Shown here piece by piece: positions 184-64,000 of a stretch of 64,000 nt of DNA; positions within the stretch are counted from its first letter, which is position 1, and each line of letters starts with the position of its first letter. This DNA comes from an uncultured cyanobacterium. GTDB taxonomy: Bacteria > Cyanobacteriota > Cyanobacteriia > Phormidesmidales > Phormidesmidaceae. The notes beneath the pieces were generated by a model. It searched no databases, was not told where the DNA came from, and saw nothing but the letters and a program-made list of their open reading frames with translations. Made by a program: the position numbers and the translations under genes. Location of the stretch: contig CAWBZI010000002.1 of the NCBI GenBank assembly GCA_963793265.1, positions 608,001 to 672,000 of the forward strand, given 5' to 3'.

Positions 184-1155
184 TTACGGCTGATTGAGAA
201 CGGTTTGGGCAATGTCAGTCGGGATGTTTTGACGCTGAAAGTAGGCTTGAATGCGCGCTTGCCGAACCTGCCAGGGAATCAGCTCGCTGCCGATGATTTT
301 GATGAGCTTGCGACAGTAGAACAAGAGGTATTTCCACTTCGGAATAGAGGGCTCAGCGCGGTGAATGCTGTTGACCATGTGCTCAACGTTGTGGGGCGAT
401 CGCCTGCTCGAAAGGCTCTTAAGCACTTGCCATTTATCAGCTAGTCGGGCACTTGTAGCCCACTGAATCCACAGTGGCATGTAGCGAATCACATCTGCTG
501 GGCGGTAGTCGGTTGTTGCCCGCAGATGACTCGATAGCTGGGCGGTGTAGCCATTTCGCTTAGCCCGGCAGATGTATTCAAAGTCACCACCGTAGTGCCG
601 AAAGCGCTGAATATCGGGCAGGCCAATGTCGGCTATAATCCGGGTCGGTAAAACTGCAATGTTGCCGTTGAGCGTATCGACGTTGAGAACAGGGCGATCA
701 AATTGTGCAATGTCGTTGATAAGCTGGCTGGCGATAACGCCGCCGAAGACAATCCAATCAGGATGCTTTTGATCGCAGATGACGCCGCCTGTGAGCGTTT
801 TAGCCTCGGGTTCTTTGAGCTGAATAACCTGGCTGATGAAGTCGTCGGCTAGGGTAATGTCGTCGTTTAGCCAAATTATGTAGTCGGTGTGAAGGGTGTC
901 GGCTGCGTAGGTCATGGCTTGTGCGATCGCCCCTGTCCACCACAGCTCACCATCACCTCGCAACAAATGGACATTGGGAAAGCTTGTCTCAATTAGCTCA
1001 GGTGTGCCGTCAGTAGAACCATCATCTACTACGACTATCTGCACGTCTTTGGCATGTAGATTTTGATTTACTATTTGCTCGGTAAGCTGCTGTAAGATTG
1101 CGCTGGTAAAGGCTTTTCGGTTGCGAACTGGGATAGCGATCGCAAAACTAGACAT
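184..1155 (-). CDS. Glycosyltransferase family 2
   Basis: AIAIPVRNRK, VVVDDGSTDGT, WLNDD (DxD) motifs. Confidence 0.9.
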   Translation of the reverse strand: MSSFAIAIPVRNRKAFTSAILQQLTEQIVNQNLHAKDVQIVVVDDGSTDGTPELIETSFPNVHLLRGDGELWWTGAIAQAMTYAADTLHTDYIIWLNDDITLADDFISQVIQLKEPEAKTLTGGVICDQKHPDWIVFGGVIASQLINDIAQFDRPVLNVDTLNGNIAVLPTRIIADIGLPDIQRFRHYGGDFEYICRAKRNGYTAQLSSHLRATTDYRPADVIRYMPLWIQWATSARLADKWQVLKSLSSRRSPHNVEHMVNSIHRAEPSIPKWKYLLFYCRKLIKIIGSELIPWQVRQARIQAYFQRQNIPTDIAQTVLNQP

Positions 1156-1320
1156 AACGCTTTTCAGGTAAAACTCACCTTATTTATGCCCATTTGTCAA
1201 ATCAATAGAGCATCAAAAATTAATACAACTTCTACGGATTTGTGCTTAGCTAATCGCGTAACGAATAGGAACTGACAGGGCTGGAAATCATCAGGCGAAG
1301 GTGTTAAGCTCTATCACTAA

Positions 1321-1368
1321 ATGCTATATGTAGCGTTTTTAGGTTCTGCTTAGCACTACATACGCTAC
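1321..1368. promoter_or_regulatory. Tandem NrdR-box-like operators upstream of nrdJ
   Basis: ATGCTATATGTAGCGT (1321-1336) and GCACTACATACGCTAC (1353-1368) resemble acaCwAtATaTwGtgt, offset 32 bp, just before the RNR start. Confidence 0.7.
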
Positions 1369-1395
1369 AAAAGCGCCCACTCATCTCTTAAAGCC

Positions 1396-3591: not shown

Positions 3592-3661
3592 CAAAAGGTC
3601 TGAAGCTGACGGAAAAGCTGACAGATGTTACGGTTCAACAAGCTAAATTGATTCAATAGGC

Positions 3662-9337: not shown

Positions 9338-9856
9338 ATGAAGCATACGCTTTCTGTATTGGTTGAAGATGAAGCGGGCGTTTTGACCCGAATTGCCGGG
9401 CTCTTTGCTCGGCGCGGCTTTAATATTGAAAGCCTAGCGGTAGGGCCAGCCGAGCAGCCTGGCATCTCGCGGATCACGATGGTTGTGCCCGGCGATGATT
9501 TGGTGATTGAGCAGCTTACTAAGCAGCTATACAAGCTGATTAACGTGCTCAAAGTGGATGACATCACCGAAACGCCTAGCGTTGAGCGCGAGCTGATGCT
9601 GCTAAAGGTAAGTGCAAACGGCCAAAATCGATCGGAAGTCGTAGGGCTCGCTCAAATTTTTAGGGCGCGTGTGGTCGATGTCTCTGAAGAGTCGCTGACG
9701 CTTGAAGTGGTAGGCGACCCTGGCAAAATGGTGGCGATTGAGCAGGTGCTTGACCGATTTGGCATTACTGAGATTGCTCGTACAGGTAAGATTGCGCTCA
9801 CGCGTGAGTCGGGCGTGAATACAGAGTATTTGAAATCTTTGGAGAGCCGGGTTTAG
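9338..9856 (+). CDS. ilvN: Acetolactate synthase small (regulatory) subunit
   Basis: [36 protein letters not shown] domain. Confidence 0.96.
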
Positions 9857-11568
9857 GCGGGGGCGGAGGTGTAGGTGTTGAGTAGCGCGATCGCGTTCTC
9901 CAATGTATCGGCCTCAGCCATCGGCTTGTCATCTCGCCAGCGCAAAATCCGTGGGAAGCGAACGGCAATGCCTGACTTATGCCGCTTGGATTCAGCAATG
10001 CCTTCAAACCCGATTTCAAAGACGTGCAAAGGCTCGACCGATCTCACCGGGCCAAATTTTTCGAGCGTATGCCGACGAATCCAGCGATCCAGCTTCTCAA
10101 TTTCCTTATTGTCTAGACCAGAATAAGCCTTAGTAAACGGCACCAGCGTCTCGCCCTTCCAGAGCGCAAACGTGTAGTCAGTAAACAGGTTCGCCCGTTT
10201 ACCTGTACCTGCTTGCGCGTAAATCAACACGGCGTCTAGCGTCATCGGATCGACTTTGTGCTTCCACCAGTAGCCACGCTTACGGCCTACAAGGTAGGGG
10301 CTGTCTAGCGCTTTGAGCATTAAGCCTTCTGCGCCGTAGGTTCTAGAGTGCGATCGCCATTCTTGAATATCGGCAAAGCTCTCTATTGGTAAGGGATTTG
10401 CATAGCTGATACGGGTTTGAAGCGCGGGGTGATTGTCGATAAGTTGAGTGAGGAGGGTGCGGCGCGATCGCAGCGCCTTCTCCCGAATGTCCTCACCGTC
10501 AATTTCCAGCAAATCGTAAGCAATAAAGTGCACCGGGTTCTCAGCCAGCAGCTTCTTAGTCACCCGCTTACGTCCCAAACGCTTCTGCAAATAATTAAAG
10601 TCCAGCGGCCTAATCGTGCCATCTTTCGCTACGCTCTGCCCATCCCAACACACTACCTCACCATCAATCACGGTGCCCTGTGGCAGCTCCATCATCGCCT
10701 CGGCCAGCTCAGGAAACTGATGCGTCACCAAATCCTCGCCGCGCGACCATATAAACGTCTGCTCGGCCCGATGGATCATCTGAGCGCGAATGCCATCCCA
10801 CTTCCACTCCGTCTGCCAGTCTCTTTTCTCAGCCTCCGCGCCCTCTTCAGATCCTTCATCCTCAGACTCGCAATCAATTTCGGCCGCAAATTTCTCCACA
10901 TCAATTGGCGAGGCCAAAAAGAAAGGATAGGGCTGACTCGGTAGCGTATCGGCATCATCTGGATGCACCAGCGCCTCATAGAACGCTGCTGTCGGCTCAA
11001 TTTCACCCATCAGCCGGTGCGCCAAAACGGCCTCCGTCAGATCATATCCAGCCGCCAGCGCCTTAATCACTAGCTTAGTGCTCACCCCGACCCTAAAAGA
11101 GCCAGTAAGCACCTTATTTAGCACAAAGATCTCGCCCTCTGACAAATTTGCCCACCAGTCAATCACCAAATCCTTAAGCTGATTTTCGTCTGTTTTAGAA
11201 AGCTGCTTGACCTGAGGAATAATATCCTCCATCCATACGTGCAAAGGCGTATTGCTATCAGCATCAGAGGCACCTGTCGGCGCTATTGGCGTATCGCGTA
11301 GCAGTAGCGCGATTGTTTCTGCCGAATCACCCACGTGCGAATAGCTCTCTTCAAATAGCCACTCTGGAATATCTGAAATCTGTAGAAAAATCTCCCGCAA
11401 AATCCGCGACGTAATCAGACGTTTGCGGGTCTTGCCCAGTAGCAAGTAGAGTGCCCACACCGCATTCTCAGGGCGCTCCTGCTGAAAGTAGTGCTGGAGA
11501 GCTTTAACCTTTTCGTTAGTTGATGTCGTCGCATCAACGGCCTTGAAGAGCTGCGTGAACTTTTCCAT
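9853..11568 (-). CDS. ATP-dependent DNA ligase
   Basis: [10 protein letters not shown] (motif I Lys), DGEV, AYDLLE, EGLMLK, RFPR; stop overlaps the ilvN stop. Confidence 0.93.
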
Positions 11569-12719: not shown

Positions 12720-12738
12720 AGAATAGGAGGCATACATC

Positions 12739-26616: not shown

Positions 26617-28425
26617 ATGCGACTGTCTCAAATGCTGTTTGTTACGCTGCGCGAAGATCCAGCGGAGGCAGAAATTCCTAGCCACAAGCTGCTGTTGCGA
26701 GCGGGCTACATGCGGCGTGTGGGTAGCGGCCTGTATGCCTATTTGCCGCTACTGCTGCGAGTGCTCAGCAAAATTTCAGACATTGTGCGCGATGAAATGA
26801 ACGCAACGGGCGCGCAAGAATGCCTGCTGCCTCAGCTTCAGCCTGCCTCACTGTGGCAAGAGTCAGGCCGCTGGGACACGTACACCAAAGCAGAAGGCAT
26901 TATGTTCAGCCTGGGCGATCGCCGCCAGCAAGAACTTGCCCTTGGCCCCACTCACGAAGAAGTCATCACCGCCGTTGCCCGCGACATGATCCGCTCGTAC
27001 CGACAGCTTCCGCTCCACCTCTATCAAATTCAAACCAAGTTTCGCGACGAGATCCGCCCCCGATTCGGCTTGATGCGCGGACGCGAATTCATTATGAAAG
27101 ACGGCTACTCGTTTCACGAGGATGCTGAGAGCCTGAAGCAAACGTATGACGAGATGTACCAGGCTTATAGCAATATTTTGCGGCGTACGGGGCTGGCATT
27201 TAGAGCGGTAGATGCCGACTCTGGCGCGATTGGTGGCTCGGGCTCTACCGAATTTATGGTGCTCGCTGAAGCGGGTGAAGATGAGGTGCTGTATACAGAA
27301 GATGGTAAGTACGCAGCGAACGTAGAGAAAGCTGTAACGCTGCCCCCCGATGCGGAGCCTTCTCCTTTTACGGCTTACGAAAAACGTGAGACACCGAACA
27401 CAGCGACTATCGCAGCGATGGTGAAGTTTTTAGACTGTTCACCGACGCAGGTTGTAAAAGACGTGCTGTATCAGGTGAGCTATGACAACGGTCGTCGGGT
27501 TTTGGTGATCGTGAGCATCCGCGCCGATCAGGACGTGAATGAAACCAAGCTACAAAATGCGCTGACGAACTTAGCCGGTAACTACGGAGGCTCGGCGGTA
27601 CTTGCGCTAGAGGTGCCCGACGAAGAGGCGCAGGCGAAGTGGGCAACAAAGCCTTTACCGTTAGGTTATATCGCGCCGAATTTGTCGGATGAGTACATCG
27701 GCAAAGCGGAAGGATTAGAGCCAAAGTTTTTACGTCTGGTTGATGAAACGGCGGTGGAGCTAAGGAATTTTGCAACCGGCTCTAATGAAAGCGGCTTTCA
27801 TGTGGTGGGTGCTAACTGGGGTAAGGAGTTTGAGCTGCCTGAGATTAAGGTGGATGTGAGAACGGCGGTGGCGGGCGATCGCGCTATCCACGACCCCAGC
27901 CAAATTATCCAAACTGCCCGAGGCATCGAAATCGGCCACATTTTCCAGCTCGGTAACAAATACTCACAGGCACTTGGCGCAACTTATACCAAAGAAGATG
28001 GCAAAGAAGCGCCGCTAGAGATGGGCTGCTATGGCGTGGGCGTTTCTCGCTTAGCGCAGGCAGCAGTGGAGCAGTCTTACGATAAGAATGGGATTATCTG
28101 GCCGGTTGCGATCGCCCCCTATCATGCCATTGTCGTTGTCCCTAATATCAGCGCGGCAGATCAGATGGAAGCTGCTGAAAAGCTGTATGCCGAGCTTAAC
28201 GCTGCTGGGGTTGAAACACTGCTAGATGACCGCAAAGAGCGGGCCGGGGTGAAGTTTAAAGACGCTGAGCTAGTGGGGATTCCGTTTCGGATTGTGACGG
28301 GGCGATCGCTCAAAGATGGCAAGGTAGAAGTGGTTAAGCGCGCTGATGGCGAAGCGCAGGACATGCCGATAGCAGACGTTGTATCAACGGTAAAAGGCTG
28401 GGTGGATGCGGCAATCGGTAAGTAA
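26617..28425 (+). CDS. proS: Proline--tRNA ligase
   Basis: [50 protein letters not shown]. Confidence 0.97.
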
Positions 28426-30613: not shown

Positions 30614-31885
30614 CTAGCGTCGCAATCTGTCTCCTAAGCTGGGTTTCTCTTTCAATCGATTCTGGATGGTTTCTAAACCTTCTTGTGACGAGATGGTGTC
30701 AGGATGGCTAGAACCAAGCCGTTCTATACAAATATTAAGAGCTTTAGACATAGTAGTAGCAGCCTCCGGCAGGCGATTTGTGTTGTAGTACAACCATGCT
30801 AGGTTGTTCAGACTGGTAGCAGTATTGGGATGGCGATCACCTAGTTCGGCTTTACTAATCTCCAACGCTTCGACATACAGCGGTTCGGCTTCGCTATAGC
30901 GACCCTGTGACTCATACAGGACTGCCAAGTTGTTCAGACTGGTAGCAGTAGAGGGATGGCGATCACCCAGTTCGACTTTCTTAATTTCCAGCGCTTCGAC
31001 ATACAGCGGTTCGGCTTCGCCATAGCGGCCTTGAATTTTATAGGCTCGCGCTAGTCGATCCAAGCTATCTGCATACTCTTCGGAATTATCTGAAGACTCC
31101 AGCATTTCAGCAGCCGTCTTCAGATAGGTTGTTGCCTTCTCAATCTCTCCTTTATAGCCTTGCGCTTTCCCCGTTTCCACTCGGCTTACGTAGGCGCTCC
31201 CTGTTTGCAGGTATAAACCAGCTAACAAAGCGCTGTCCGACGACTTTGCTACCGTTTCTTCTATCAAGTCTTCTAAATCATCAATTGGTAATGTGTTCCC
31301 CACATCCTCCAATTGTGAGAACTGCTCATGCTTACGGAGTGAAGCCAGCTCATCTGTCGAAATAGCCTGTCGCTTGGGCGAAACAAAACGCATCACATCT
31401 CGCCGCCAGCTCCAAAAGTCAGGGGCCTTACGGCTGAGCTGTTCCTGAAGCTGGTAAGTCACCCACAGCACAATTGCAAATGGAAAATCTTGTAGCCCTT
31501 CTCGTGTCCACTGCAAATAGCCAAAAAACGCCTCCTGCTGAGACTGCGCTGCCTCAAACCTGAGCGTACGCAAGCCCTCAGCCCCTAAAATGCTCATCAC
31601 CGCCCGTCCGCCCTGCTGTAGGTACGGGTCTTCCTTAACCTGTTGCAGCAGCAACGCCTTTAAGCTCGGCTCGTTTGCATTCAACCTCAGCCGATAGTGC
31701 CGAAACTCAGGGGCTAATTCCTGCTCATAGCGGTTAATAATGTCTTCTTTGAGCTGCGGATCATCACACACCGCAATATAAATGCCCAATCGCCCGCCGC
31801 TAGCCTCTATCGACACCAGCAAATCATCCAGCGCATCCTGGTTTTCCTGAGATAAGTTCTTATCGGTAAGGCCGATCTCAGCCAT
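30614..31885 (-). CDS. TPR-repeat protein with N-terminal LQWTRE..APDFWSW domain
   Basis: 42-aa repeats GRYGEAEPLYVEALEI..LGDRHPSTATSLNNLA. Confidence 0.88.
   Translation of the reverse strand: MAEIGLTDKNLSQENQDALDDLLVSIEASGGRLGIYIAVCDDPQLKEDIINRYEQELAPEFRHYRLRLNANEPSLKALLLQQVKEDPYLQQGGRAVMSILGAEGLRTLRFEAAQSQQEAFFGYLQWTREGLQDFPFAIVLWVTYQLQEQLSRKAPDFWSWRRDVMRFVSPKRQAISTDELASLRKHEQFSQLEDVGNTLPIDDLEDLIEETVAKSSDSALLAGLYLQTGSAYVSRVETGKAQGYKGEIEKATTYLKTAAEMLESSDNSEEYADSLDRLARAYKIQGRYGEAEPLYVEALEIKKVELGDRHPSTATSLNNLAVLYESQGRYSEAEPLYVEALEISKAELGDRHPNTATSLNNLAWLYYNTNRLPEAATTMSKALNICIERLGSSHPDTISSQEGLETIQNRLKEKPSLGDRLRR
30803..31033. repeat. 126-bp tandem repeat encoding TPR units
   Basis: GTTGTTCAGACTGGTAGCAGTA starts at 30803 and 30929; identical ACATACAGCGGTTCGGCTTCGC in both copies. 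Confidence 0.9.
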
Positions 31886-32169: not shown

Positions 32170-32257
32170 AGTCAGTAAACGTAAAGGGTCAGATTTCGAG
32201 CGGCACTGTGAATGAAAACGATAATTGGAATATTGCTAAATCCTACTGTATTGCGTT

Positions 32258-35200
32258 CTATTGCGCTGATAGCCCCGCTTCAATTTCGCCTTCAGCTTCG
32301 TGCGCGATCGCCCGCAACCCATCCACCATTTCCTCACTTGCCCCTTCCCACAGTCCCCGCTGATTAGCCTCTAACAATCGCTCCGCCATGTCTCGCAGCG
32401 CCCAAGGATTCGATTTTTCAACAAACTCTCGCACCTCAGAATCAAACACATAGGCATTCGCAACACCTTCGTACATATGGTTTTCTACACAGTGCGTTGT
32501 GGCATCGTAAGCAAACAGGTAATCAACCGTTGCAGACATCTCAAAAGCGCCCTTATAGCCGTGTCGCATTACGCCTTCGATCCATTTGGGATTAACCACA
32601 CGAGAGCGGTAGACTCGGGCGATTTCAGCCTTTAGCGATCGCACCCTCGGCCTCTCAGGCACCGCATTATCGCCAAAGTAAGTCACAGGCGCTTCCCCCT
32701 TTTGCGACTTCACCGCCGCCGTCAGCCCGCCTTGGAACTGATAATAGTCATCAGAATCAAGCAAATCATGCTCGCGATTGTCTTGGTTTTGCAACACAAT
32801 TTGCATTTGAGCTAGGCGCTGATTAAACGCTTCAGGGGCGCTGTGTCCGTTCGCCTGGCCGGTATAGGCGTAGCCGCTCCAATTGATATAGGCGCGAGCC
32901 AAGTCTTCATCACTCTCCCAGTTTTGGGCTTCGATTAACCCTTGCAAACCTGCGCCATAAGCACCGGGTTTAGAGCCAAAGACTCGATAGCGCGATCGCT
33001 CCAAACTCTGCTGATCACTAAGTCCTTCCTTTTTCCAGTAGTGGTAATCCTTCTGCACTTGCCCCGCGAGTGGATTGTCTTCTGCTGATTCATCTAACGC
33101 TGAAACTGCGTTGACCGCCTGATCAAACAGAGAGATTAAATTGGGAAACGCATCGCGGAAGAATCCAGAAACGCGCAAAGTGACATCTACGCGAGGACGA
33201 CCTAACAAAGAGATAGGCAAGATTTCAAAATCCACTACCCGCCGACTAGGGCCGTCCCATACGGGACGGACGCCCAGTAAGGCTAAGGCTTCTGAGATAT
33301 CATCGCCGCCTGTGCGCATCGCCGCAGTTCCCCACATTGAGAGGCCCAGCGTACGGGGATATTCGCCGTTCTCTTGGGTGTAGTTTTCGACGACGATTTC
33401 GGCGGCTTTTCGCCCGACATCCCAGGCGCTTTCGGTGGGAATGGCGCGGATGTCTACGGAGTAGAAGTTGCGGCCTGTCGGGAGAACTTCGGGGCGGTTG
33501 CGGGTAGGTGCGCCTGAGGGGCCGCTGGGAACGTAATCACCATTTAATCCGTTTAGTAGATTTTGAACTTCATCGGTTGTGCGGCGGAGGTTGGGCAGTA
33601 AGAGACGATTAATCCAGTTTAATACCGGCTGGACTGCGGCAGAAGGTGCAGATTCTAGAGTTTCTCTTACCATCGCTTGAACGAGATATTGAGCGTGAGC
33701 TTCAATTTTTTCTACAATGTCGCCAGTCGTACGGCAGTCTTTGAGATGCGGCTGGTTTGTAGAATAGGGCTCTGATAGGTCTGTGGCGAGCGGGTCGAAG
33801 TCCAGGTTCCAGTCTTGGGCGATCGCCCGGCTCAGGCCCATGTGTTCTGAGTTAGGATGACGCGCGATCGCGACCACCAGATCTACAAGCTGCCTTCCTG
33901 TTGGGCACTGTCCGTATATGTGTAAACCATCTCGAATTTGAGCTTCCTTTAGCTCGCAGAGATAGCCGTCGATTTGAGGAAGCCAGGTTTGTAGAGTATC
34001 TGAGCTTTCTACGGGGGAAAGGTTCAAATCCTGTTGAAGCTGGGTGCTTTTGAGCAGCGCAACAATTTTGTTCGCGATTAAAGGTAGGCGCGTCGGGTCT
34101 AAATTTTGAGCTTCGTAGTACTCATCAACCAGGCTCTCTAGCTGCTGTAAGGGGCCGTAGAGTTCAGCGCGGGTCATTGGAGGCGTGAGGTGATCGAGAA
34201 TGACGGCTTGCGATCGCCTTTTTGCCTGTGCCCCTTCGCCTGGATCATTCACAATAAACGGATAAAAGTGCGGCATTGGGCCAAAAGCGGCCTCTGGATA
34301 GCACTCATTCGATAGCGCAATACCCTTGCCCGGTAGCCATTCCAAATTGCCATGCTTACCAACATGAACCATCGCATCAGCTTCAAAATGGTGGCGGAGC
34401 CAGTGATAAAACCCTAAGTAGGCGTGAGTAGGCTCTAAATCTGGGGCGTGATAGTTCAAGCTTGGATCAATGTCGTAGCCTCGGCTCGGCTGAATGCCTA
34501 CAAACACATTGCCAAACTGAACGCCGGGGATAGGCATTGCTGTCGCAGATTCCGACTGCGCGGCAGGTGAAAAACGCTGCCACTCTTCAATTGCAGTTCC
34601 CCACCTTTTCGACACGCCCGACTGTACTAAATTCGGAAGCGTTTCAAAAAACTGCTGATAGTCTGTCTCGCTGAGCGTTTGAGCGCTTGGCTTTAGACCA
34701 TAGCCTTCAGGATCGTTGGTGATGCCATCAGTCAGTTGCGACATCAGGTCATCGCCCGTTTCAGGTAGCGAGCTAAGGGTATAGCCTGCCTGCTGCAAAG
34801 CCTTGAGGATTTGCAGGCAGCTTGCAGGGGTATCGAGGCCAACACCGTTCGCAATACGGCCATCGCGGTTAGGGTAGTTGGCTAAAATAAGCGCGATTTT
34901 GCGGTCTTCGACAGGCGTGTGCTTGAGGTGAATCCAGCGGGCAGCTAGGTCAGCGACAAAATCGACGCGATCGCCCACCGGCTCATAGAGCACCACATCC
35001 GTTTGCAACTGACCGCTATCACCCTCTTTCTGCGTCGCCTTAAAAGACACCGTTCGCGTGATGATGCGACCATCAACTTCAGGCAGCGCCACATTCATCG
35101 CAATATCCCGTGGCGTTAAGCCCTGAGGATGACTTTGCCAGTGTTCTAAGGCGCTGCCGCTACAGATGGCCTGAAGCACGGGGACGTTTAGCGATCGCCA

Positions 35201-40402: not shown

Positions 40403-42493
40403 TTAGGAGGCGGGAGCCTTTGGCCTTGCAATCGTAGTCAGAACCTTTTCAGGCAGTTGAGTGTACTCGCTCACGATGCCGCGAAACTCTTCACCGTCAA
40501 TCGTCTCTTTCTCAATCAGCGTATCGACCAGCCGATCGACCAGCGAGCGGTTGCTGCGAATGATCTCAATGGCTTTATCCAGGCTCTCTTGCGCGATCGC
40601 CCGCACCTTCTCATCAATCTTAGTGGCCAGCTCATCAGAATATTCATGACCGCCGCCCATCAAGTTACTCTGACCGAGGAAAGGCTGTGAGTTTTCACTT
40701 TCTAGCGCAAACGATCCTAGCTCAGTCATGCCAAACCGGGTCACCATCTGCCGAGCAATCCGGCTAACCTGCTCAATGTCGCTGCTAGCCCCAACCGTCA
40801 CTTCATCATGACCAAAAATCACTTCTTCAGCCGCACGACCGCCTAGCGCCACCACTAGCTGATCAACAATCTCACCATACGAAACCAGGCCATCGTCTAC
40901 CTGTTCTTCTTTAGGTAAGAAGCTGGCAAAGCCACCCACCCCACCAGAGCGTGGAATAATCGTGACTTTGTTCAGCGGATTAGCGTGTTTGCACAGCGTC
41001 GCAGTCAGCGCATGGCCGACTTCGTGATAGGCCACCAGTCGCTTTTTCTTGCTGTCTAGCAAAGGCGTCAGGCTCAGGCCCATCGTGAGGCGATCAATCG
41101 CGTCGTTCACTTCGAGCATGGTGACGGCATCTTTGCGACGGCGAGCGGTGAGAATGGCTGCTTCGTTGAGCAGGTTAGCAAGCTGAGCACCTGAGAAGCC
41201 GGGGGTGCGGCGGGCGATCGCCTCCATTTTCACACCGTCCTCAATCTTCTTATCGCGCGCGTGCACCTGCAAAATGCCCAGACGACCTTTGTACCCAGGC
41301 AAATCAACCGATACCTGACGGTCAAATCTGCCGGGCCGCAGCAGCGCCGAGTCCAAAACATCAGGACGGTTCGTCGCCGCGATAATGATAATGCCGCTAT
41401 TGCCTTCAAAACCATCCATTTCAGTCAGGAGCTGGTTAAGCGTTTGCTCGCGCTCATCATTACCGCCGCCAATGCCCGTACCGCGCTGACGACCTACCGC
41501 ATCAATCTCATCAATAAAGACGATACAAGGCGCGCTTTCTTTCGCTTTTTTGAACAGGTCACGGACGCGAGAAGCGCCCACACCGACAAACATCTCAACG
41601 AATTCTGAACCCGAAATGCTAAAGAAAGGCGTACCGGCTTCACCTGCGATCGCCTTGGCCAAAAGCGTCTTACCCGTTCCAGGCGGCCCTACCAGCAGCA
41701 CACCTTTAGGAATTCTGGCCCCAATCGCCGTAAAGCGCTCTGGATTTTTCAAAAAGGTCACCACTTCTTGCAGCTCCTCTTTAGCCTCATCAATCCCGGC
41801 TACATCATCAAACATCACGCCCGTTTTTGCTTCCATCTGAAAGCGAGCCTTGGACTTACCGAAGCTCATCGCCCCGCCGCCCGATCCGGCTGACTTGCGC
41901 AACAGCATCAGCATGGCAAAAATCACCAGCACAGCGATAAAAGCCGTGGTCGCGAAGCTAGTAATAGCGCTGTTATCGGCATTGCGAGCGGCTTCCCACT
42001 CGACGTTATTCGCCTGCAAACGCTCCTGCAAATCCAGGTTCTTATCGTTTGCAAATATCTCAACGCGGCGCGGGTCAGCGTCCGGCGGGTCATTCCTTAG
42101 CCTTACGCTGGCAACACCGTTGAGCTGATCGAGCGAAACCTCTTTTACTTCGCCGTTGTCAATCTTTTCGAGCAGTTGGCTGTAGGTAAGTTCGTCCTCT
42201 TCGCCGTCTTCTGCCGCTTCACCATCTAGCGTCGCTGCGGGTGGGGTTTGCTGCTCAACCTCAGTAACATTTGGGGTGTCGGCATCTTGAGCGATCGCAG
42301 GTGATAAGGCCATCAGTCCACCATGACCTAGCAGCAGCGTTACCGCCAAAGTGCTCGCAGAAAGTGCGCCTAGCCTGGCGCGAAGGGAATACCGTTTCGA
42401 GCGCCTATTCTGGCACTTAGCCATGCGGGTTTGAGCGCGCCGATACGTCCGGTTAGTCGCGGACTGGTCTTTCTGAAAAGAAGGTTTGGTCAT
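40403..42493 (-). CDS. ftsH: ATP-dependent zinc metalloprotease FtsH
   Basis: [40 protein letters not shown]. Confidence 0.96.
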
Positions 42494-42707: not shown

Positions 42708-43649
42708 ATGGCTGCAACCTCTTTTAGTATCGCGATCGCTACTTACAACCGCCTCGACTTACTCAAGCGCGCCATCCAGTCGGCTCTCGATCAAACCGTC
42801 AGCGCCGAGGTGATTGTGGTCGATAATGCCTCGACCGATGGGACTCAGGCTTATGTGGAGGCGCTAGGCGATCGCGTCATATATGTGCGCAACAGCTCGA
42901 ACCTAAACCATGCGGGCGCGGTGAATGCAGGCGTAGAAGCGGCCAGTGGCGAGTGGATTAAGCTGGTGGATGACGATGATTATTTGGCGGCAGATTGTAT
43001 TGAACGGATGGGGGATGCGATCGCCCTACGCCCCCAGGCCGTAATCTGCTCCTGCCAAGCCGCCCAAGTCAATGCCGAAGGCACCGAACTAAGCCGCACC
43101 CCGACCACTGGCCCCGGCAAAATCTTTTACATTCCCCAAGCCGATATCCACTACGGCATGTTGTTAGAAGTCGTTCCTTTCGGCACTCCCATTCAGGTCG
43201 CCGTCCGCCGCGACGCCTTTCTCAAATCCGGCGGCTGGGACTTATCGATGACAAGCTGCGACGACATCGACTCCTGGATTCGCGTTGCAGAGCACGGCGA
43301 TGCCCTCTTTATCAATCAGTGCTTGGCCTATCGCACCGTATGGCCCGGCGGCTACGACCAAAAGATCGCCCTACCGCAGCGCCTATCCACCAACTTACTG
43401 ATGAAAGAGCGCATCTACCCGCGCGTGAACGCCAAGCACAAAGCCAACCTGCCGCAGCTCTCCACTATTAATAAGTATCTACATTTGCACTGGGCAATCG
43501 TGGCGCTTAAACGCAAGCAGCTTGCGACTACGGCATCCCTCGGCTTTCCAGCCGCGTTTTCTGTACCGGCATGGCAGCTCTTGCAGCAAGCCATCGCCTT
43601 TAGAAAGCAAAAAGCTCAGGCCCCTATTGAAAAAACAGCTTTAGCCTGA
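42708..43649 (+). CDS. Glycosyltransferase family 2
   Basis: SIAIATYNR, VVDNASTDGT, LVDDDD. Confidence 0.9.
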   Translation: MAATSFSIAIATYNRLDLLKRAIQSALDQTVSAEVIVVDNASTDGTQAYVEALGDRVIYVRNSSNLNHAGAVNAGVEAASGEWIKLVDDDDYLAADCIERMGDAIALRPQAVICSCQAAQVNAEGTELSRTPTTGPGKIFYIPQADIHYGMLLEVVPFGTPIQVAVRRDAFLKSGGWDLSMTSCDDIDSWIRVAEHGDALFINQCLAYRTVWPGGYDQKIALPQRLSTNLLMKERIYPRVNAKHKANLPQLSTINKYLHLHWAIVALKRKQLATTASLGFPAAFSVPAWQLLQQAIAFRKQKAQAPIEKTALA

Positions 43650-45157: not shown

Positions 45158-46189
45158 CTAGCCCCCAATTTGAGACATCGTGCGGCTGTAGGATCCGGTA
45201 ACGCCAGATTCGCGCATTTTGAAGTTGATATCAGGCTTCTCGCCTACTAGAGCGCCTACCCGTTTTCGCAAGGTGGCCAGCGGAATGCCAGAACGTAAAC
45301 TGGAGCGTAGATCTATCTGGCCGGTTTCGTTGAGGAGGCAGGGTCTTAGAAGGCCATCGGCAGAGAGGCGCATTCGGTTGCATCTATCGCAAAAGCATTC
45401 TGACATTTGGCTAATAAAACCTAATGTTCCTTTTGCGCCGGGAATTTGAAAGACATCAGCCGGGCCATTGCCTTTCACGCTGCCGTCTGTAATTCCCCAG
45501 CGCTGGTTAATTTGTGCGCGGATAGATTCACTATCTACCCAGCCTTTGCTGCCGAATAGATCGCTGTTGCCGATGGGCATGAATTCGATAAACCGGACGT
45601 GCCATTCTTGCTCAAGCGTGAGTGCGGCCAAGTCAAGGACTTCGTGATCATTGATGCCGGGAATGACAACTACGTTCAGCTTAAGAGGAGAGAATCCGAC
45701 TGTGTGGGCAGCTTGGATGCCGCGCCAAACTTCGTGCCAACGAGACTGGTTTTTGCCGCCGACGATTTTTTGAAAGGTGTTGGGGTTCAGAGAATCTAGG
45801 CTGATGTTGATGCGTCGTAAGCCTGCGTCGTAGAGCGGCTGGGCAAGTTTTTCTAGGCGGAAGCCGTTGGTGGTGATAGCGAGGTCTTGGGTTTGCCGGA
45901 GATGGGCGATCGCATCCACCAGCTCCACAATGCCCGGCCTCAGCAAAGGCTCTCCGCCCGTCAGCCGAAAGCGCGTAAACCCCAAAGGAATAAACACTTC
46001 TTTAAGCAGCGTCAAAATCTCATCATGCGTCAGCCAGTGCTCTTTAAGCGCATACTCAAGATCTGCGCCTTCGGGCATACAGTACACGCATTGAAAGTTA
46101 CAGCGGTCGATCAGACTGATGCGTAGATAGTCAATGCGATTTGATGCGGGTGGAACGTTGGCGTTTTTGACACCTAGAAAGGTATTCAT
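45158..46189 (-). CDS. moaA: GTP 3',8-cyclase (radical SAM)
   Basis: [29 protein letters not shown]-terminal MSQIGG. Confidence 0.96.
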
Positions 46190-46840: not shown

Positions 46841-47942
46841 AATTTCTTCTACACCTCAAAGCGGATACACATTACCTGTATTTGCCTGTGCAGGTGCGAT
46901 CGCTGCCCTCCGCCTCCTTTCAAAAAACCAATCCCAAACCACCGTCACCCTCAACCTCATCACCCCCGCCCAAACTGCCGACATCTCCATTGAGCAGTCT
47001 GCTCTCCTCCCTGACGCTTCAGCCCTCGCCATCACTCGCAGCGATCCCGGTGACAACTTAGATCTCACACGCCACACGCCGATCTGGTCTATCGTAAGCT
47101 GGGCCAGCGCCGATCAAACTGAGCAAGTTCTATTAGAAGGCGGGGAAGGGATTGGACAACACGCTGACGGCCCAGCCATCTATGCCTACGCGCGGCAGCT
47201 TTTGCAAACGAACCTGGCAAAAGAGTTAAGTGCCGATCAAAAAATTAAAGTAACTATTATTTTGCCAGCCGGACGACAGCTTGCACTGCGCACGTCCAAC
47301 GCGGCATTTGGCGTAGTAGATGGTTTGTCGCTACTCGGCACTAGCGGTATCGCGCAGCCGCTTAGCGCCCCTGGTCAGCTAGAAGCTTATAGACAAACGC
47401 TCAGGGAAAAAGCAGCTAAGTTTGACGATTTAGTTTTTTGCTTGGGTGAGAACGGGCTGGATCTGGCACTGAAGCAGGGGATAGCGGCAGAGAAAAGGTT
47501 GAAAACGGCTAACTGGATTGGGCCTTTGCTTGTAGAAGCTGGGCTACTAGGCGTACGCTCAATTTTGCTCTTTGGCTATCACGGCAAGCTGGTTAAGCTA
47601 GCGGGCGGGATTTTTCATACGCATCATCATGTCGCGGATGGGCGGCAGGAGATTATGGCGGCTTGCTGCGTGCAGGCGGGGATGGAGAGTGCGATCGCTC
47701 AAAAAATCCTTGCTGCAGGCACCACCGAAGCCGGGCTGGAGATCTTGAGAAAGTTGGATCTTCAGCAGGGGAGCCAGTGGGTAGAACAAGTGTATAAAAT
47801 TATCGCTGAGCGAATCGATTATCGCTCGCAGGCTTACATTCAAACCCACGGCGGGCCGAAGGTTCAAGTCGGCAGCGTGCTATTCGACCGGCAGCGTCGG
47901 ATCGTTGTAAAAAGTGAAATGGGCGCAAAACTGCTGGCTTAA
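46833..47942 (+). CDS. cbiD: Cobalt-precorrin-5B C1-methyltransferase
   Basis: SGYTLPVFACA, SDPGDNLDLT, RTSNAAFGVVDGLSLLGTSG, GYHGKLVKLAGGIFHTH. Confidence 0.93.
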   Translation: MSEISSTPQSGYTLPVFACAGAIAALRLLSKNQSQTTVTLNLITPAQTADISIEQSALLPDASALAITRSDPGDNLDLTRHTPIWSIVSWASADQTEQVLLEGGEGIGQHADGPAIYAYARQLLQTNLAKELSADQKIKVTIILPAGRQLALRTSNAAFGVVDGLSLLGTSGIAQPLSAPGQLEAYRQTLREKAAKFDDLVFCLGENGLDLALKQGIAAEKRLKTANWIGPLLVEAGLLGVRSILLFGYHGKLVKLAGGIFHTHHHVADGRQEIMAACCVQAGMESAIAQKILAAGTTEAGLEILRKLDLQQGSQWVEQVYKIIAERIDYRSQAYIQTHGGPKVQVGSVLFDRQRRIVVKSEMGAKLLA

Positions 47943-60367: not shown

Positions 60368-62971
60368 TTACTTCGTCGTCATCACATGTACACCATCCCA
60401 GTCAGCAGCGAGCGGGCGCTGAATATATTCCTGTGCCCGTTCCAAATGCAGGGAAACCGCTAAGTCGTCAGGCCGCATGGCTAAGGCTGCGTCAAAGCAG
60501 GAAATAGCAAGGTGGAAGGATTTAGCTTTGTAGGCTTCGCGGCCTTGGGTGTAAAGATCTAGGAAATTTTCGGTGTCTGAAGAGAGCGGGTGGGCGCGAT
60601 CGCCTATCAGCTCATAAATTTTCACCGGCTTCAGTTTCCCTTTCACCCGAATCAAATCCAGCTCGCGCACCCAAATCTTGTCATGGCAAAGCTCATACGT
60701 ATGCTCGCTGAGCACAATATCACAGCCGTACTGCTTGGTAATACTCTCTAGCCGAGCGCTCAAGTTCACCCCATCGCCAATCACGGTATAGTCCATTTTG
60801 CGCTGAGAGCCAATATTTCCTGATACCACTTCTCCCGAGCTAAGACCAATCCCAATTCGCAGCTCAGGCTGTCCTTTTTCGCGACGATCGCGGTTGAACA
60901 CCACTAGACGCTGCCGCATATCCAGCGCCGACTTCACCCCCGACCAGGCATGGTTACTCAATGGCAGCGGCGCGCCAAACACCGCCATCAGCGCATCGCC
61001 AATAAACTTGTCCAACGTGCCTTCACAGTGAAACACCGACTCCACCATCGTCTCGAAATATTCATTCAGCATAGACACCACATCCGAAGCCTCTAGCGCC
61101 TCGGTCAAGGTGGTATAGCCGCGAATATCAGAAAACAGCACTGTCACATCCTTACGCTCACCCACCATCAGCACGTCTTCACCTAAAGCCATCACCCGCT
61201 CAGCCACACTCGGCGTCATATACCGATACAGCGTCGTCTTCATCCGCTTCTCCTGACTAATATCTTCCAATACCACCAGGCCCCCACGCACACCCCCATT
61301 CGGATCGCTCAACGGACTTACCGTTAGGTTAATACTTCGGTTCCAACCCATCACCGACTCAGGCGCGTATAGCCGATCGCCCGAGCCCCATAGCAAATAC
61401 TCATCGCCATCTGGCACTACTAGCACACACTGCTCAGGCATCGAACGTCTGCTATATTCAGCCACCTGCACTTCAGCCGGATAGCTCAGCGCGGTCGAAG
61501 CGACAGTTACCGTCAAAGACTGCTCGGGTACATAGTGACGCGCCCCGCTTTGCAGACTATCCTCTAGTCGAAATCTCAGTTGCTCTAAAGGCAGCACATC
61601 CCAAAGGCACCGACCGAGCAAAGCTTCATGCCAAAGGCGGCCGACAACGCCGTTTATACGCTGCTCTGCATCCTCATTGACACCCGGCCCCAAATCAGTA
61701 AAGTCCCCAGTTGGACAGCCTAACAGCTTCAGCGCAGCCTCGTTAATGGTGACAATTCGCCCGGCCATATCGGTTGAAATTACGGCATCAGAAAGACTCT
61801 CTAAAATGTCTTTTTGGTATTGTTTTTCTAACGAAATCTCTTGGAATAGCTGAGCGTTTTCTAACGCAATACCGGCTTGCGTATTAAACGCTCGCATGAA
61901 AGATTCGTCTAGCTGCGTAAACTGCCCCTGCACTTTGTTAATGAGCTGGCTTACGCCAATCAGCTTGCCGCCAGAGTTAAACACGGGCATACACAAAATA
62001 TTGCGTGTTCGATAGCCTGTCTTCAAGTCAGATGATACGTCGAAGCGCGCGTCGCGATAGGCATCTAAAATGTTCAGCGTCTCGGCAGTGGTGGCTACAT
62101 GTCCCACAATTCCTTTATCAGCAGGCAGTCGCAAATTAATCAGCCGACCACCATCAGCGCTTTGCACCTGCGACCACAGCTCGTTTTTGGCCTCGTCTAT
62201 TAGCCAAAGGGTACTTCTGTCGGCCTGCATCAGATTACGCGCAGCGGCCATCACCGATTGCAGCGTCACGGTTAAGTTCAGGCTTTGCTCCATTGAAGAG
62301 ATGGCTTTGAGCAGTGCGGCTACGCCTTTTTGGTTACGCGCGGCCCGGTAAAAAGACTGGCAGCTTTCGAGTAAAACACCGATAGAGGGTGCGAACCTGG
62401 CAAAGCGGGCTTCGTCATCAGCCGAGAAGGGAGCGGTGCCGACTTTGTTGAGGAGCTGAGCGATCGCAACCACCCTTTGCTCACTATCCACCACCGGCAT
62501 ACACAAAATATTGCGTGTCCGATAGCCGGTCTGCCGGTCTGTAGCATCGCTAAACCGCGAGTCTGCATAGGCATCAGGAATATTAAGCACCTGCCCTGTT
62601 GTTGCCACAAAACCAGCGATCCCTTTATTCAACGGCAGCCTAATTTCCAGTCCGCCTGTGCCACCTGTGCCCTGTGCCACCTTACTCCACAGCTCCTGCC
62701 GGTCTTCATCCACTACAAAGATCGTCGTACGATCTGCCTGCAAAATCTGACCTATTTTGAGCGTAAACGTCTCTAACAGCTCATCTAGCATTGGCTCTAG
62801 CGACTGATTATTGATTAAGTCAATCACCTTGAGAAATTGCTTAAAATCGCGAGTTGTTCGCTCTAGAAAGTGAATGAAATCAGGAATCGAGAGATCTTCA
62901 ACCCGCTCAGCCAAACGGCCATGGTTTTGCTGAGAAAGGGCCGAGAAAACACTGCTTGTTGACTGAGCCAT
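60368..62971 (-). CDS. cyaB: GAF-GAF-PAS class III adenylate cyclase (CyaB-type)
   Basis: Two GAF domains with NK..F...D(E) motifs, FSDIRGYT, DKFIGDALMAVFG, YTVIGDGVNLSARLE. Confidence 0.9.
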   Translation of the reverse strand: MAQSTSSVFSALSQQNHGRLAERVEDLSIPDFIHFLERTTRDFKQFLKVIDLINNQSLEPMLDELLETFTLKIGQILQADRTTIFVVDEDRQELWSKVAQGTGGTGGLEIRLPLNKGIAGFVATTGQVLNIPDAYADSRFSDATDRQTGYRTRNILCMPVVDSEQRVVAIAQLLNKVGTAPFSADDEARFARFAPSIGVLLESCQSFYRAARNQKGVAALLKAISSMEQSLNLTVTLQSVMAAARNLMQADRSTLWLIDEAKNELWSQVQSADGGRLINLRLPADKGIVGHVATTAETLNILDAYRDARFDVSSDLKTGYRTRNILCMPVFNSGGKLIGVSQLINKVQGQFTQLDESFMRAFNTQAGIALENAQLFQEISLEKQYQKDILESLSDAVISTDMAGRIVTINEAALKLLGCPTGDFTDLGPGVNEDAEQRINGVVGRLWHEALLGRCLWDVLPLEQLRFRLEDSLQSGARHYVPEQSLTVTVASTALSYPAEVQVAEYSRRSMPEQCVLVVPDGDEYLLWGSGDRLYAPESVMGWNRSINLTVSPLSDPNGGVRGGLVVLEDISQEKRMKTTLYRYMTPSVAERVMALGEDVLMVGERKDVTVLFSDIRGYTTLTEALEASDVVSMLNEYFETMVESVFHCEGTLDKFIGDALMAVFGAPLPLSNHAWSGVKSALDMRQRLVVFNRDRREKGQPELRIGIGLSSGEVVSGNIGSQRKMDYTVIGDGVNLSARLESITKQYGCDIVLSEHTYELCHDKIWVRELDLIRVKGKLKPVKIYELIGDRAHPLSSDTENFLDLYTQGREAYKAKSFHLAISCFDAALAMRPDDLAVSLHLERAQEYIQRPLAADWDGVHVMTTK

Positions 62972-63010
62972 GATTGCTATTTTTAACCGAAGAGGGTAGG
63001 CACCACATCA

Positions 63011-63019
63011 AGTATTCCC
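63011..63019 (-). promoter_or_regulatory. SigF/SigJ-type promoter element GGGAATACT upstream of cyaB
   Basis: Exact GGGAATACT on the minus strand, about 40 nt before the ATG. Confidence 0.55.
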
Positions 63020-63170
63020 GTTAAGTCCAGCTCGCTTTCCTTTCAGCTCAAGCGATTGTAGGGACATTGGGATCTAGATACTCGGTTATAAAACTGGCAT
63101 TATCTTTGCGTAATTCTTGTCCCGTCAGCTGATGATATTTTAGAAACCGTTGCTCTTAAGAGATAATGCT

Positions 63171-64000
63171 ATGCGTCTTGCTTTTATCAAACGATCTGTT
63201 CCTGTGCTGGTAGCTGTTGCGATCGCAGGCTGTAATTCTGCGCCTGAAAGCACGACCGTAGATTCTGTTGATACTAACAGTACAACTGATACAACAGAAA
63301 TAGACAAAGACTCGAAGGTAGAGGGTGATCGCGCTCAAAAGCCTACAGAGCAGCCTAAGAGCACTCCAAAGTACGTTTCTCCCTCGCTACAGCCCGGCAC
63401 ATACTGCTACGAAACTAGCGATGAGATTGAAGATATTTCGGTGCGATTGGTGGTTGATAGTAGCGATCGCATCACCGGAAACGTACAAGGCACCATCCAC
63501 AACGAAGAAGCCGGTTACTACACAAGCTATCGCCAGGCAGTAACCGGCACTATCGACGGCAGCAACCTCAATGTAGATATTGCAACCTGGATTGAATACG
63601 ACAAGCAAAACGCTCAGGAAACTTGGAGCGCCAGTCCGACAGCACTCACGATGAGAGATGACACGCTTGCTAAAGCGAGCTGTGAGAAGGTGAGCAAAGT
63701 CTTTCAGAACGAAAATGGCTTGGAGGCTAAAGACTTAACACAGAGCGCTAATAATGTGCGAACAGAACAGGTTTACTTTTCTCAAGGAAAGAGTGGAACG
63801 ACGGTGAGCAATGCTGTGGTGAGGGGCGATCGCGATGTGTACGTGCTCACGGCTCAGGGCGGTCAACAGATGGATCTCTCTATCACTTCGCTAGAAGACA
63901 ACGCCGTATTTGATGTTATTGATCCTAGCGGTATTATTTTAGGAACAGAGATGACGAAAGAGACTGTGTTTTTGCCGCATACGGGAGACTATGAAATTAT
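63171..64000 (+). CDS. Putative lipoprotein with C-terminal PPC/PliG-like beta-sandwich; runs off the window end
   Basis: Not in the ORF track. Open frame from ATG 63171: MRLAFIKRSVPVLVAVAIAGC (lipobox) ... VVRGDRDVYVLTAQGGQQMDLSITSLEDNAVFDVIDP. Confidence 0.8.
   Translation, partial: MRLAFIKRSVPVLVAVAIAGCNSAPESTTVDSVDTNSTTDTTEIDKDSKVEGDRAQKPTEQPKSTPKYVSPSLQPGTYCYETSDEIEDISVRLVVDSSDRITGNVQGTIHNEEAGYYTSYRQAVTGTIDGSNLNVDIATWIEYDKQNAQETWSASPTALTMRDDTLAKASCEKVSKVFQNENGLEAKDLTQSANNVRTEQVYFSQGKSGTTVSNAVVRGDRDVYVLTAQGGQQMDLSITSLEDNAVFDVIDPSGIILGTEMTKETVFLPHTGDYEI

Follow-up and report, generated by a model that had tools for sequence, protein, structure and literature searches.

Papers published between 2018 and 2026, among them PMC13756078 and bioRxiv 10.1101/2024.09.10.611283, still call the function of the palindromic octamer HIP1 (GCGATCGC) open. 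Elhai proposed a G-5mC-directed mismatch repair at HIP1, modeled on the Dam/MutH system of E. coli (PMC4390886). In Synechococcus PCC 7002, transformation rises more than 100-fold when a homology arm carries a HIP1 copy, and addAB is not needed (bioRxiv 10.1101/2024.09.10.611283); this effect fits a role of HIP1 in recombination. HIP1 was also proposed to be a DNA uptake sequence (PMC13756078). At the break hotspots of human meiosis, an asymmetry of C>N and A>N changes was described on the resected single strand, and part of it was attributed to error-prone fill-in (Hinch et al. 2023, PMC7615360). We analyzed the composition around HIP1 in a 64,000-nucleotide stretch of DNA (hereafter, the window; contig CAWBZI010000002.1, G000:C2:608001-672000) from an uncultured cyanobacterium of the Phormidesmidaceae (GenBank assembly GCA_963793265.1, genome G000), as well as in the complete set of 7 contigs, which comprises 5.68 Mb with 51% G+C.

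The window includes 93 copies of HIP1, while 2.07 are expected and the maximum across 100 shuffles was 5; this strong over-representation is a property shared with DNA uptake sequences. The whole genome has 6,888 copies with a mean spacing of 822 nucleotides (nt) and a median of 585 nt, and 23% and 40.5% of it are located within 100 and 200 nt of some HIP1, respectively. The composition of the + strand was confirmed to flip from G-rich to C-rich at these sites.

The compositional flip at HIP1

The initial annotation of the window had claimed this flip from hand counts of G and C at a few sites. The seven counts were exact, including that of a site whose left flank did not fit, and the six sites quoted in support were stand-out picks, as had been cautioned (ranks 2, 4, 6, 7, 8 and 17 of 93). 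The flip survived the averaging of all sites: the GC skew at 1–30 nt was +0.25 on the left and −0.24 on the right (n = 92), and the median site of the window had D = 7, with the same sign as the quoted extreme sites, where D is (G−C)left−(G−C)right. In the adjacent 30 nt, G exceeded C on the left at 73 of the 93 sites and C exceeded G on the right at 72; both conditions coincided at 55 and a single site was reversed. The mean D calculated over flank nt 4–33, D(4-33), was 7.20 ± 0.65, and its value was positive at 84.9% of the HIP1 sites compared to 44.7% of all window positions. The highest mean D(4-33) in 10,000 random draws of 93 window positions was 2.16. The claimed dyad symmetry was also found, since both flanks mirror each other and are equally strong. 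The left flank had been described as G/T-rich, which was strongly the case for G; the T component was weak over all bases (AT skew, −0.04/+0.065) and clear at twofold-degenerate sites. The two long C-rich tracts that had been recognized by eye were both under the 1st percentile of 700-nt windows (−0.286).

Genome-wide, the GC skew left and right of 6,886 sites was +0.220/−0.230 at 1–30 nt, and decayed to +0.073/−0.091 at 51–100 nt and +0.014/−0.030 at 201–300 nt. D over 50-nt flanks (D50) was positive at 84.0% of the HIP1 sites in the genome and at 46.5% of all positions. The shift was unimodal, with no subset of sites driving the mean, and all 7 contigs carried the flip (D, 5.3–6.6). The large-scale skew in 50-kb windows had a standard deviation of about 0.04 and no clear replichore structure; therefore, the split by replichore that had been suggested was not usable. 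This large-scale skew merely adds an offset to the flip, as seen in contigs C4 (+0.044; D, 5.7) and C6 (−0.033; D, 6.3).

Genes were called using a simple codon-usage model (4,625 genes, 85.7% coding), in which calling errors can merely dilute the signal. The skew at fourfold-degenerate sites was +0.61/−0.60 at 1–10 nt, +0.42/−0.45 at 11–30 nt, +0.22/−0.25 at 61–100 nt, and +0.09/−0.14 at 101–200 nt, and faded over about 1 kb. A logistic fit to 450,615 fourfold G/C sites produced a kernel, in logit, of 1.53 at 0–10 nt, 0.58 at 70–100 nt, 0.22 at 200–300 nt, 0.16 at 400–600 nt, 0.07 at 800–1,200 nt, and 0.01 beyond 1.2 kb. The next-but-one HIP1 contributed about half as much as the nearest one below 150 nt and the same as the nearest from 300 nt on. 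Therefore, an intervening HIP1 does not stop the long-range part of the effect. Between neighboring copies, the silent-site skew was a sawtooth with zero at the midpoint in every spacing class.

The footprint was specific to HIP1 and anchored on the entire octamer. Palindromic octamers present in 20 copies or more numbered 166; the D of HIP1 was 6.93 ± 0.07 and the median of the other 165 was −0.2. The second highest, ATCGCGAT (4.1), is an overlap of two HIP1 copies. The control words named in the initial annotation showed no flip in the window when located over 150 nt away from the nearest HIP1 (GATC, n = 139, −0.21 ± 0.44; CGATCG, n = 10, −0.20 ± 1.04). Across the genome, at 150 nt or more from any HIP1, no effect was found at CGATCG (n = 830), GATC (n = 14,121), GGCC, GCGC, CGCG or TCGA, nor was there a footprint at the one-letter HIP1 variants with a change at position 1 or 8. 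A near-full effect among the one-letter variants was limited to GTGATCGC (n = 248) and GCGATCAC (n = 306), which are C>T products of HIP1. None of the hexamers away from HIP1 had a value above |1.6|, compared to 8.7 for HIP1, and a counter-motif at opposite flips was ruled out because none was found among them. Among the strongest flips of the genome, HIP1 was at the center of 582 of 884 in the G>C direction and of 0 of 344 in the opposite direction.

The variants GTGATCGC and GCGATCAC were, in addition, 2–6 times commoner than the other one-letter variants (50–171 copies) in the same genome-wide set. Such an abundance would be expected of freshly decayed sites, and it fits a frequent C>T decay at the second C. 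This second C is the position reported as methylated in CGATCG (PMC4390886; bioRxiv 10.1101/2024.09.10.611283).

The extended consensus around HIP1 has G at −1 to −3 and C at +1 to +3, and no flank position exceeded 0.41 for any base. Mirrored complementarity was at or below the composition expectation at each of the 16 mirrored positions tested in the range 1–30, which ruled out an extended palindrome or hairpin like those of repetitive extragenic palindromes. The lack of a fixed flank position together with that of mirrored complementarity indicated that the element is not a longer palindrome. Table 1 collects the features of the window.

Table 1. HIP1 sites and skewed tracts in the window (flank counts are for the + strand; gene names are those of the initial annotation; ranks are among the 93 sites)
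Feature	Position	Strand	Description
Span of all 93 HIP1 sites	396..63833		each on average the center of a + strand switch from G-rich to C-rich
HIP1 site	10464..10471		14G/3C left, 5G/13C right; in − gene 9853-11568 (ligase); rank 4/93
HIP1 site	27875..27882		15G/3C left, 3G/12C right; in + gene 26617-28425 (proS); rank 2/93
HIP1 site	41214..41221		15G/7C left, 1G/12C right; in − gene 40403-42493 (ftsH); rank 6/93
HIP1 site	43017..43024		13G/3C left, 6G/14C right; in + gene 42708-43649 (GT2); rank 7/93
HIP1 site	45906..45913		13G/4C left, 5G/14C right; in − gene 45158-46189 (moaA); rank 8/93
HIP1 site	60596..60603		13G/4C left, 3G/9C right; in − gene 60368-62971 (cyaB); rank 17/93
HIP1 site, left flank misfit	46896..46903		6G/7C left; right flank fits (2G/13C)
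Long C-rich tract right of HIP1 10464	10472..11200	+	GC skew −0.30
Long C-rich tract right of HIP1 60596	60604..61400	+	GC skew −0.34
G/T-rich tract left of HIP1 33819	33300..33818	+	GC skew +0.18, just under the 95th percentile (+0.185); AT skew −0.18

Close strains represented in public metagenome contigs differ from the window in or near some HIP1 copies. The HIP1 at 26915-26922 has a T>C change inside, at 26919, and two differences just before it (26911 and 26914), and a C>T change at 32999 affects the last base of the HIP1 at 32992-32999. The variants at 26919 and 32999 show turnover of HIP1 sites inside the species. The variants available comprise 40 of 234 variable places, which are too few for a spatial test. 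In a different region, positions 30789-31035, within the − gene at 30614-31885, matched many head-to-tail copies in relatives, about 126 nt apart and with 76–85% identity (e.g., G011:C9:60844-61715 and G008:C304:6318-6992). This segment looks like a repeated 42-residue protein module with a copy number that varies between species. In the close-strain contigs, 686 nt at 30620-31307 are replaced by 204 other letters, and 300 nt at 31884-32185 by 46; these changes are structural variants beside the repeat-bearing gene.

Coding context, direction of cause and distribution among lineages

The flip had been described as independent of gene direction, and the fourfold-site skew values were indeed identical for + and − genes. 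By itself, this independence carries no weight, because the palindrome forces the same sense-strand look in both orientations. The sign change was present at both fourfold and intergenic positions, the two classes in which the initial annotation had recommended looking for it. The skew was strongest at fourfold sites, weakest at codon positions 1 and 2, and reduced in intergenic DNA (0.29–0.32 at 1–10 nt and 0.12–0.15 at 11–30 nt). It had equal size in all three reading frames (9.5, 8.8 and 8.8) and in all eight fourfold codon families. The balance of G-ending versus C-ending codons was 0.56–0.89 upstream and 0.12–0.39 downstream of HIP1, and amino-acid use was shifted as well, with an enrichment of Met, Glu, Val and Gly upstream and of Thr, Asn, Ile, His and Pro downstream.

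At a given distance, the fourfold skew did not depend on whether the nearest HIP1 belonged to the gene itself or to a neighbor that was co-directional, convergent or divergent. The sense G/(G+C) at fourfold sites at 200–300 nt was, by transcription-unit class, 0.538, 0.564 and 0.545 upstream and 0.447, 0.472 and 0.449 downstream, with a baseline of 0.474. Therefore, the cause acts on the DNA and not on the transcript. The equality across convergent and divergent gene boundaries ruled out a cause at the mRNA level, and the crossing of divergent boundaries, together with the ortholog pairs described below, ruled out codon or protein context.

The positions of HIP1 were compared in 274 ortholog pairs, mapped codon by codon, between G000 and three species of the same genus. 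These relatives are other species, with nucleotide identities of 71–80% and a fourfold-site identity of 0.38, which is near saturation. Where HIP1 was found only in G000 (n = 182 positions), D50 was 8.0 ± 0.6 in G000 and 0.53 ± 0.49 in the relative; where it was found only in the relative (n = 143), D50 was 6.3 ± 0.7 in the relative and 1.4 ± 0.7 in G000. The values were 11.7 and 8.5 when HIP1 was common to both orthologs (n = 203), and 0.1 and 0.0 at random aligned positions. An ordinary flip in one genome is half conserved in the other (slope, 0.56), and HIP1-free positions with a D of at least 6 in one genome had 4.9 in the relative. A pre-existing flip would thus predict 4.4 in the relative instead of the 0.53 seen, and therefore the flip follows HIP1 in the same protein context. 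These comparisons showed that the flip needs HIP1 in that lineage and that the cause runs from HIP1 to the skew. The stronger flip at the older (shared) sites supports the idea that the footprint builds up after HIP1 appears.

To compare other lineages, 72–260 kb were sampled from each of 17 further genomes; the samples are small and the genomes are kin, and the comparison carries no statistical claim. D(4-33) was 4.6–6.1 in the same-genus genomes G001, G004 and G007, compared to 6.7 for a 300-kb stretch of G000. In other families it was 3.7 ± 0.5 (G037), 2.9 ± 0.7 (G018 and G022) and 1.5–1.8 (G028, G065, G020 and G049), and the lowest values were 0.6 ± 0.55 (G052), 0.37 ± 0.26 (G017, 461 sites) and 0.26 ± 0.93 (G019). 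G015 had a single HIP1 in the sampled stretch and gave no estimate. The footprint is widespread and its strength varies; it is extreme in this genus, and some HIP1-rich genomes lack it.

The enrichment of HIP1 seems to reach beyond the class of the window. Ten genomes labeled as of the same phylum and not as of the same class, G039, G042, G051, G054 and G057 (f25), G045 and G060 (f24), G027 and G033 (f20), and G030 (f23), have 1,055–2,885 HIP1 copies versus 8–74 copies of the reversed control word. Two of these ten were sampled, G042 and G045, and showed little flank skew.

Exchanged bases and possible mechanisms

On the strand that forms the 5′ flank, G at the fourfold sites beside HIP1 increased from about 0.29 to 0.45–0.49 and C decreased from about 0.28 to 0.11, with shifts of only about 0.02 in A and T and no drop in GC content. 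At twofold sites, where a G↔C exchange would not be synonymous, transitions shifted strongly: C/(C+T) was 0.244 upstream, 0.489 at baseline and 0.617 downstream, and G/(A+G) was 0.672, 0.526 and 0.327, respectively. Taken together, the fourfold and twofold shifts establish the order G > A~T > C on the 5′-flank strand. C is lost everywhere on this strand, and A, which is unchanged at fourfold sites, yields to G at the twofold ones. A signature of sequence context (CpG, TpC or GpC) was not found, the exchange being independent of the neighboring base. The purine share of this strand increased from 0.48 to 0.67; therefore, transversions or a fixation bias are needed.

Polarizing the substitutions with relatives had been recommended in the initial annotation. 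Only net flows could be read, because fourfold sites are near saturation, and indirect paths blur the figures. In lineage-specific flanks, G gained from C, T and A (asymmetry of 0.39, 0.18 and 0.13), C lost to G, T and A (0.39, 0.31 and 0.22), and A↔T was balanced. Of the 134 differences to the closest strain (public metagenome contigs, run X1), 109 were transitions.

The initial annotation had explained the flip by nicks or breaks at HIP1 followed by 5′→3′ excision and deamination of the exposed strand. The anatomy expected from this explanation was found, as the footprint is dyad symmetric, polar, anchored on the octamer and acts at the DNA level, and so were the transitions at twofold sites. 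Deamination as the whole cause was ruled out, because fourfold sites gain G rather than T and the GC content does not fall. The reading that we prefer, with our confidence evenly divided between accepting and rejecting it, is that HIP1 anchors a strand-polar transaction in which a strand is removed 5′→3′ from HIP1 and then resynthesized. One strand would be opened at HIP1, or processed from it, and its removal would proceed 5′→3′ for tens of bases up to about 1 kb before the removed stretch is resynthesized on the other strand. Given the palindrome, the same process would run to the right on the + strand and to the left on the − strand. On either strand, a repeatedly exposed template would lie 5′ of HIP1 and a repeatedly new strand 3′ of it. 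Errors could come from two sources, the fixation of lesions on the exposed template (C>N, A>G) and a biased fill-in synthesis that inserts C too often and G too rarely. The outcome would be G > A~T > C on the 5′ flank, the mirrored order on the 3′ flank, and a footprint that grows with the age of the site. An alternative route of exposure would be a helicase-nuclease that spares the 3′-ended strand from HIP1 onward. The sign of the G/C asymmetry and that of the weak A/T asymmetry are those of a strand that is often single-stranded, here the one 5′ of HIP1. The scale G > A~T > C is what biased misincorporation during fill-in would yield, and a fixation bias would yield it too. A more specific proposal, which we hold with slightly less assurance, is that HIP1 is the entry point of an undescribed strand-polar pathway in which, after a nick or break, one strand is replaced 5′→3′ over a distance of up to about 1 kb. 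We infer the nick or break, the chemistry, and the direction in which the strand is removed.

Several observations weigh against a transaction of this kind. The main signal is G-for-C, with A/T unchanged and independence of neighboring bases, and we know of no single lesion that gives such an exchange. Although G-for-C is the main signal, G↔C accounted for just 7 of the 134 differences to the closest strain. The intergenic skew is about three times weaker than that of fourfold sites at the same distance (0.12–0.15 versus 0.42–0.45 at 11–30 nt), which pure mutation bias would predict only if intergenic DNA were under constraint or had a faster turnover. An identical composition would result from selection or from a conversion bias on G minus C. 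The 7 public runs found consist of contigs only, list no molecule ends and hold no physical evidence of nicks, breaks or single strands at HIP1. The lack of a footprint in some HIP1-rich genomes (7,537 copies in G017, with the D of 0.37 ± 0.26 given above) indicates that HIP1 alone is not enough. The searches for candidate enzymes in five genomes were also unfavorable: MutH (PF02976) was found in 0/5, with a match in the E. coli control; Vsr (PF03852) in 0/5, with matches in the three known genomes used as controls; and recC (TIGR01450) in 0/5, with recB, recD and addA not searched individually. The matches to PDDEXK_1 were only short open frames of 199–296 amino acids.

Other components were present. 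The methyl-directed repair idea mentioned in the initial annotation is in agreement with the finding of MutL (PF08676) in 5/5 genomes, and lacks the MutH and Vsr nickases. RecJ, a 5′→3′ exonuclease, was found in 5/5 genomes; MutS was not searched. The counts of C5 DNA methyltransferases do not track the footprint cleanly across genomes. G000 has 8 matches to PF00145, and G052 has 7 and no footprint; a search of six methyltransferases against NCBIfam did not provide a specificity. G017 (2.8 Mb, 7,537 HIP1 copies) has neither a PF00145 match nor flank skew. Therefore, HIP1 abundance is possible without a C5 methylase of PF00145.

The RecJ protein of G000 has 1,077 amino acids and is encoded outside the window (L131:1-3237; G000:C5:247034-250270, − strand). 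Its DHH, DHHA1 and RecJ_OB domains end at residue 589 and are followed by about 490 amino acids, which comprise a coiled coil as well as a conserved domain some 230 amino acids long. This long C-terminal extension was found in G000, G007 and G037, which are the sampled genomes with the three largest footprints, and was not found in 8 other sampled genomes using the same query; the genomes that have it are closely related, and the sample is a small one. The predicted model of the extension domain (pLDDT, 76) resembles HEPN domains, with RnlA as a match (Z of 10.2, root-mean-square deviation of 3.6, 139 residues aligned). The likeness is weak, being that of a helical bundle, and the model suggests recognition of RNA and not of HIP1. 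An R-x4-H motif was found in 4 of 6 aligned extension sequences. All 76 database proteins with this domain were RecJ fusions. A Foldseek search of the PDB with the extension returned nothing, a protein atlas gave nothing usable, and a search for related loci with a single extension sequence retrieved only 3 further loci.

Among the competing explanations, the one that survives best, which we nonetheless deem unlikely, is a fixation bias rather than a mutation bias, by which fixation favors the alleles with more G or less C on the 5′-flank strand. Possible routes are biased gene conversion in a heteroduplex started at HIP1 (between chromosome copies or with imported DNA), a drive associated with uptake or recombination, and selection for a G-rich 3′ tail that would better serve the function of HIP1. 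A single additive scale, G > A~T > C, with A/T untouched and no dependence on the neighboring base, is in agreement with a fixation bias, as are the net flows in lineage-specific flanks, the weaker intergenic effect and the rarity of recent G↔C differences despite G-for-C being the main signal. Also in its favor are the promotion of recombination or uptake by HIP1 in PCC 7002 and the role as uptake signal that was proposed (PMC13756078). However, the simplest form of this bias, in which G:G is repaired and C:C is not, acts only on G↔C and was ruled out as the sole cause by the strong twofold-site shifts. The usual polarity, in which the 3′ tail invades and is corrected to the donor, would by our reasoning give the opposite sign. 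Besides, there is no position-specific flank consensus of the uptake-sequence type, and selection on single synonymous sites up to 1 kb away would have to be very weak per site.

It is improbable that the footprint is a by-product of replication, with HIP1 as the preferred start or stop of lagging-strand fragments or of repair-type replication and a strand exposure that differs by side. Bacterial Okazaki fragments have a length of the order of the spacing of HIP1, the sawtooth between copies resembles a small-scale replication skew, and the G/T-rich strand bears the signature of one that is often single-stranded. Nonetheless, priming at HIP1 would expose the template longest on the far side, which by our reasoning is the opposite sign. 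Both flanks were equal on all 7 contigs, so that forks would need to pass both ways equally everywhere, and the effect of a site partly passes the next HIP1.

Reverse causality, namely that HIP1 arises or survives where a switch from G-rich to C-rich pre-exists, is more improbable still. The larger flip at shared, older sites (11.7 versus 8.0) could reflect better survival in a skewed context, and the extended consensus could be read likewise, but the genome without HIP1 at a position has no flip (0.53 ± 0.49, where 4.4 is predicted from half-conserved ordinary flips), and the strongest flips are not an independent background, as HIP1 is at the center of two thirds of them and of none of the opposite ones. 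That the amino acids or codons that accompany GCGATCGC in frame make the pattern is hardly credible: the palindrome makes the sense-strand pattern look independent of direction, and the initial argument does not exclude coding for that reason, but this artefact was already refuted by the frame, fourfold and intergenic, ortholog and transcription-unit tests, in which the effect had the same size in three frames, peaked at fourfold sites, was lowest at codon positions 1 and 2, was present intergenically, crossed into neighboring genes of either orientation, and was lacking at the same protein position in orthologs without HIP1.

HIP1 has been known for about thirty years, and a polar, octamer-specific footprint turns the question of its function into statements that can be tested, namely that a process begins at HIP1, acts unequally on the two strands with a fixed direction, extends for about 1 kb, and varies in strength by lineage. 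The main organizer of local GC skew and synonymous codon choice in G000 is a short repeat, and not replication or expression. Studies of codon usage, skew-based prediction of origins, and substitution models for cyanobacteria should allow for this footprint. Lineages with and without it offer a comparative route to the responsible enzyme. If HIP1 is the entry point of a strand-polar pathway, this pathway would run often enough in this genus to determine the composition of silent sites, and to a measurable extent the usage of amino acids, in the 40% of the genome located within 200 nt of HIP1. It would then be possible to read from the footprint where the pathway acts and how far it extends, and the HIP1-rich lineages that lack the footprint would be the place to look for the missing enzyme.

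Comparison with known systems

A published description of the flank skew of HIP1 was not found; subscription-only papers and supplements were outside the scope of this search. The words "skew" and "asymmetr" are absent from the accessible text of Elhai 2015 (PMC4390886) and Xu et al. 2018, and they are absent in the compositional sense from that of the 2024 preprint (bioRxiv 10.1101/2024.09.10.611283) and of the 2026 Genome Biology and Evolution paper (PMC13756078).

The HIP1 footprint and replication skew have in common a G/T-rich strand that is more often single-stranded, and an abrupt jump followed by a gradual return. Replication GC skew switches at the origin and terminus, and mammalian replication domains show a sawtooth of skew. 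Unlike these, HIP1 makes thousands of switches (6,888), about every 0.8 kb, with a jump that has the sign of a terminus and not of an origin, and its silent-site amplitude of ±0.6 is far above that of the large-scale skew (standard deviation about 0.04). Very-short-patch repair produces patches of about 10–20 nt. The footprint of HIP1 reaches about 1 kb, and Vsr was found in 0/5 genomes.

Chi and HIP1 are both over-represented octamers tied to recombination, and in both cases the strand 5′ of the site would become a single-stranded 3′ tail. However, Chi is an asymmetric word that is co-oriented with replication, and HIP1 is perfectly palindromic with both flanks equally affected; a flank skew is not known to have been described for Chi, a point at which no search was aimed. 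The RecBCD/AddAB machinery is a poor counterpart, since RecC was not found (0/5), the PDDEXK_1 matches were only short open reading frames, and the effect in PCC 7002 does not need addAB. DNA uptake sequences and uptake signal sequences resemble HIP1 in that they are hyper-abundant short words present in genes and between them, and a drive could also shape their flanks. These sequences have a position-specific flank consensus over tens of bases; the flanks of HIP1, in contrast, have no fixed position and show a shift in composition only, out to about 1 kb.

The model of Elhai (PMC4390886) shares with the footprint the use of HIP1 as a landmark for the nicking or degradation of a strand, a reach of about 1 kb, and the need for the outer G and C of the octamer. 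As far as its accessible text goes, this model explains the accumulation of HIP1 and predicts no flank skew, and the 7-mers that are active in it had no footprint here. In addition, repair of the MutH type excises both ways, which by our reasoning leaves no polarity, and MutH was found in 0/5 genomes.

The closest documented parallel is that of the human meiotic hotspots (PMC7615360). The hotspots concern new mutations at protein-defined sites of a eukaryote, whereas HIP1 concerns the equilibrium composition at an 8-base palindrome in a bacterium. What chiefly happens at HIP1 is a replacement of C by G, and A hardly changes at fourfold sites; breaks at HIP1 are putative. Nonetheless, both show a mirror-image asymmetry about a defined site, with a range of about 1–2 kb at the hotspots and about 1 kb at HIP1. 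At the hotspots, the forward strand to the left of the break, which is single after 5′→3′ resection, loses C and A (PMC7615360), and the C>T and A>G shifts at the twofold sites of HIP1 match this loss.

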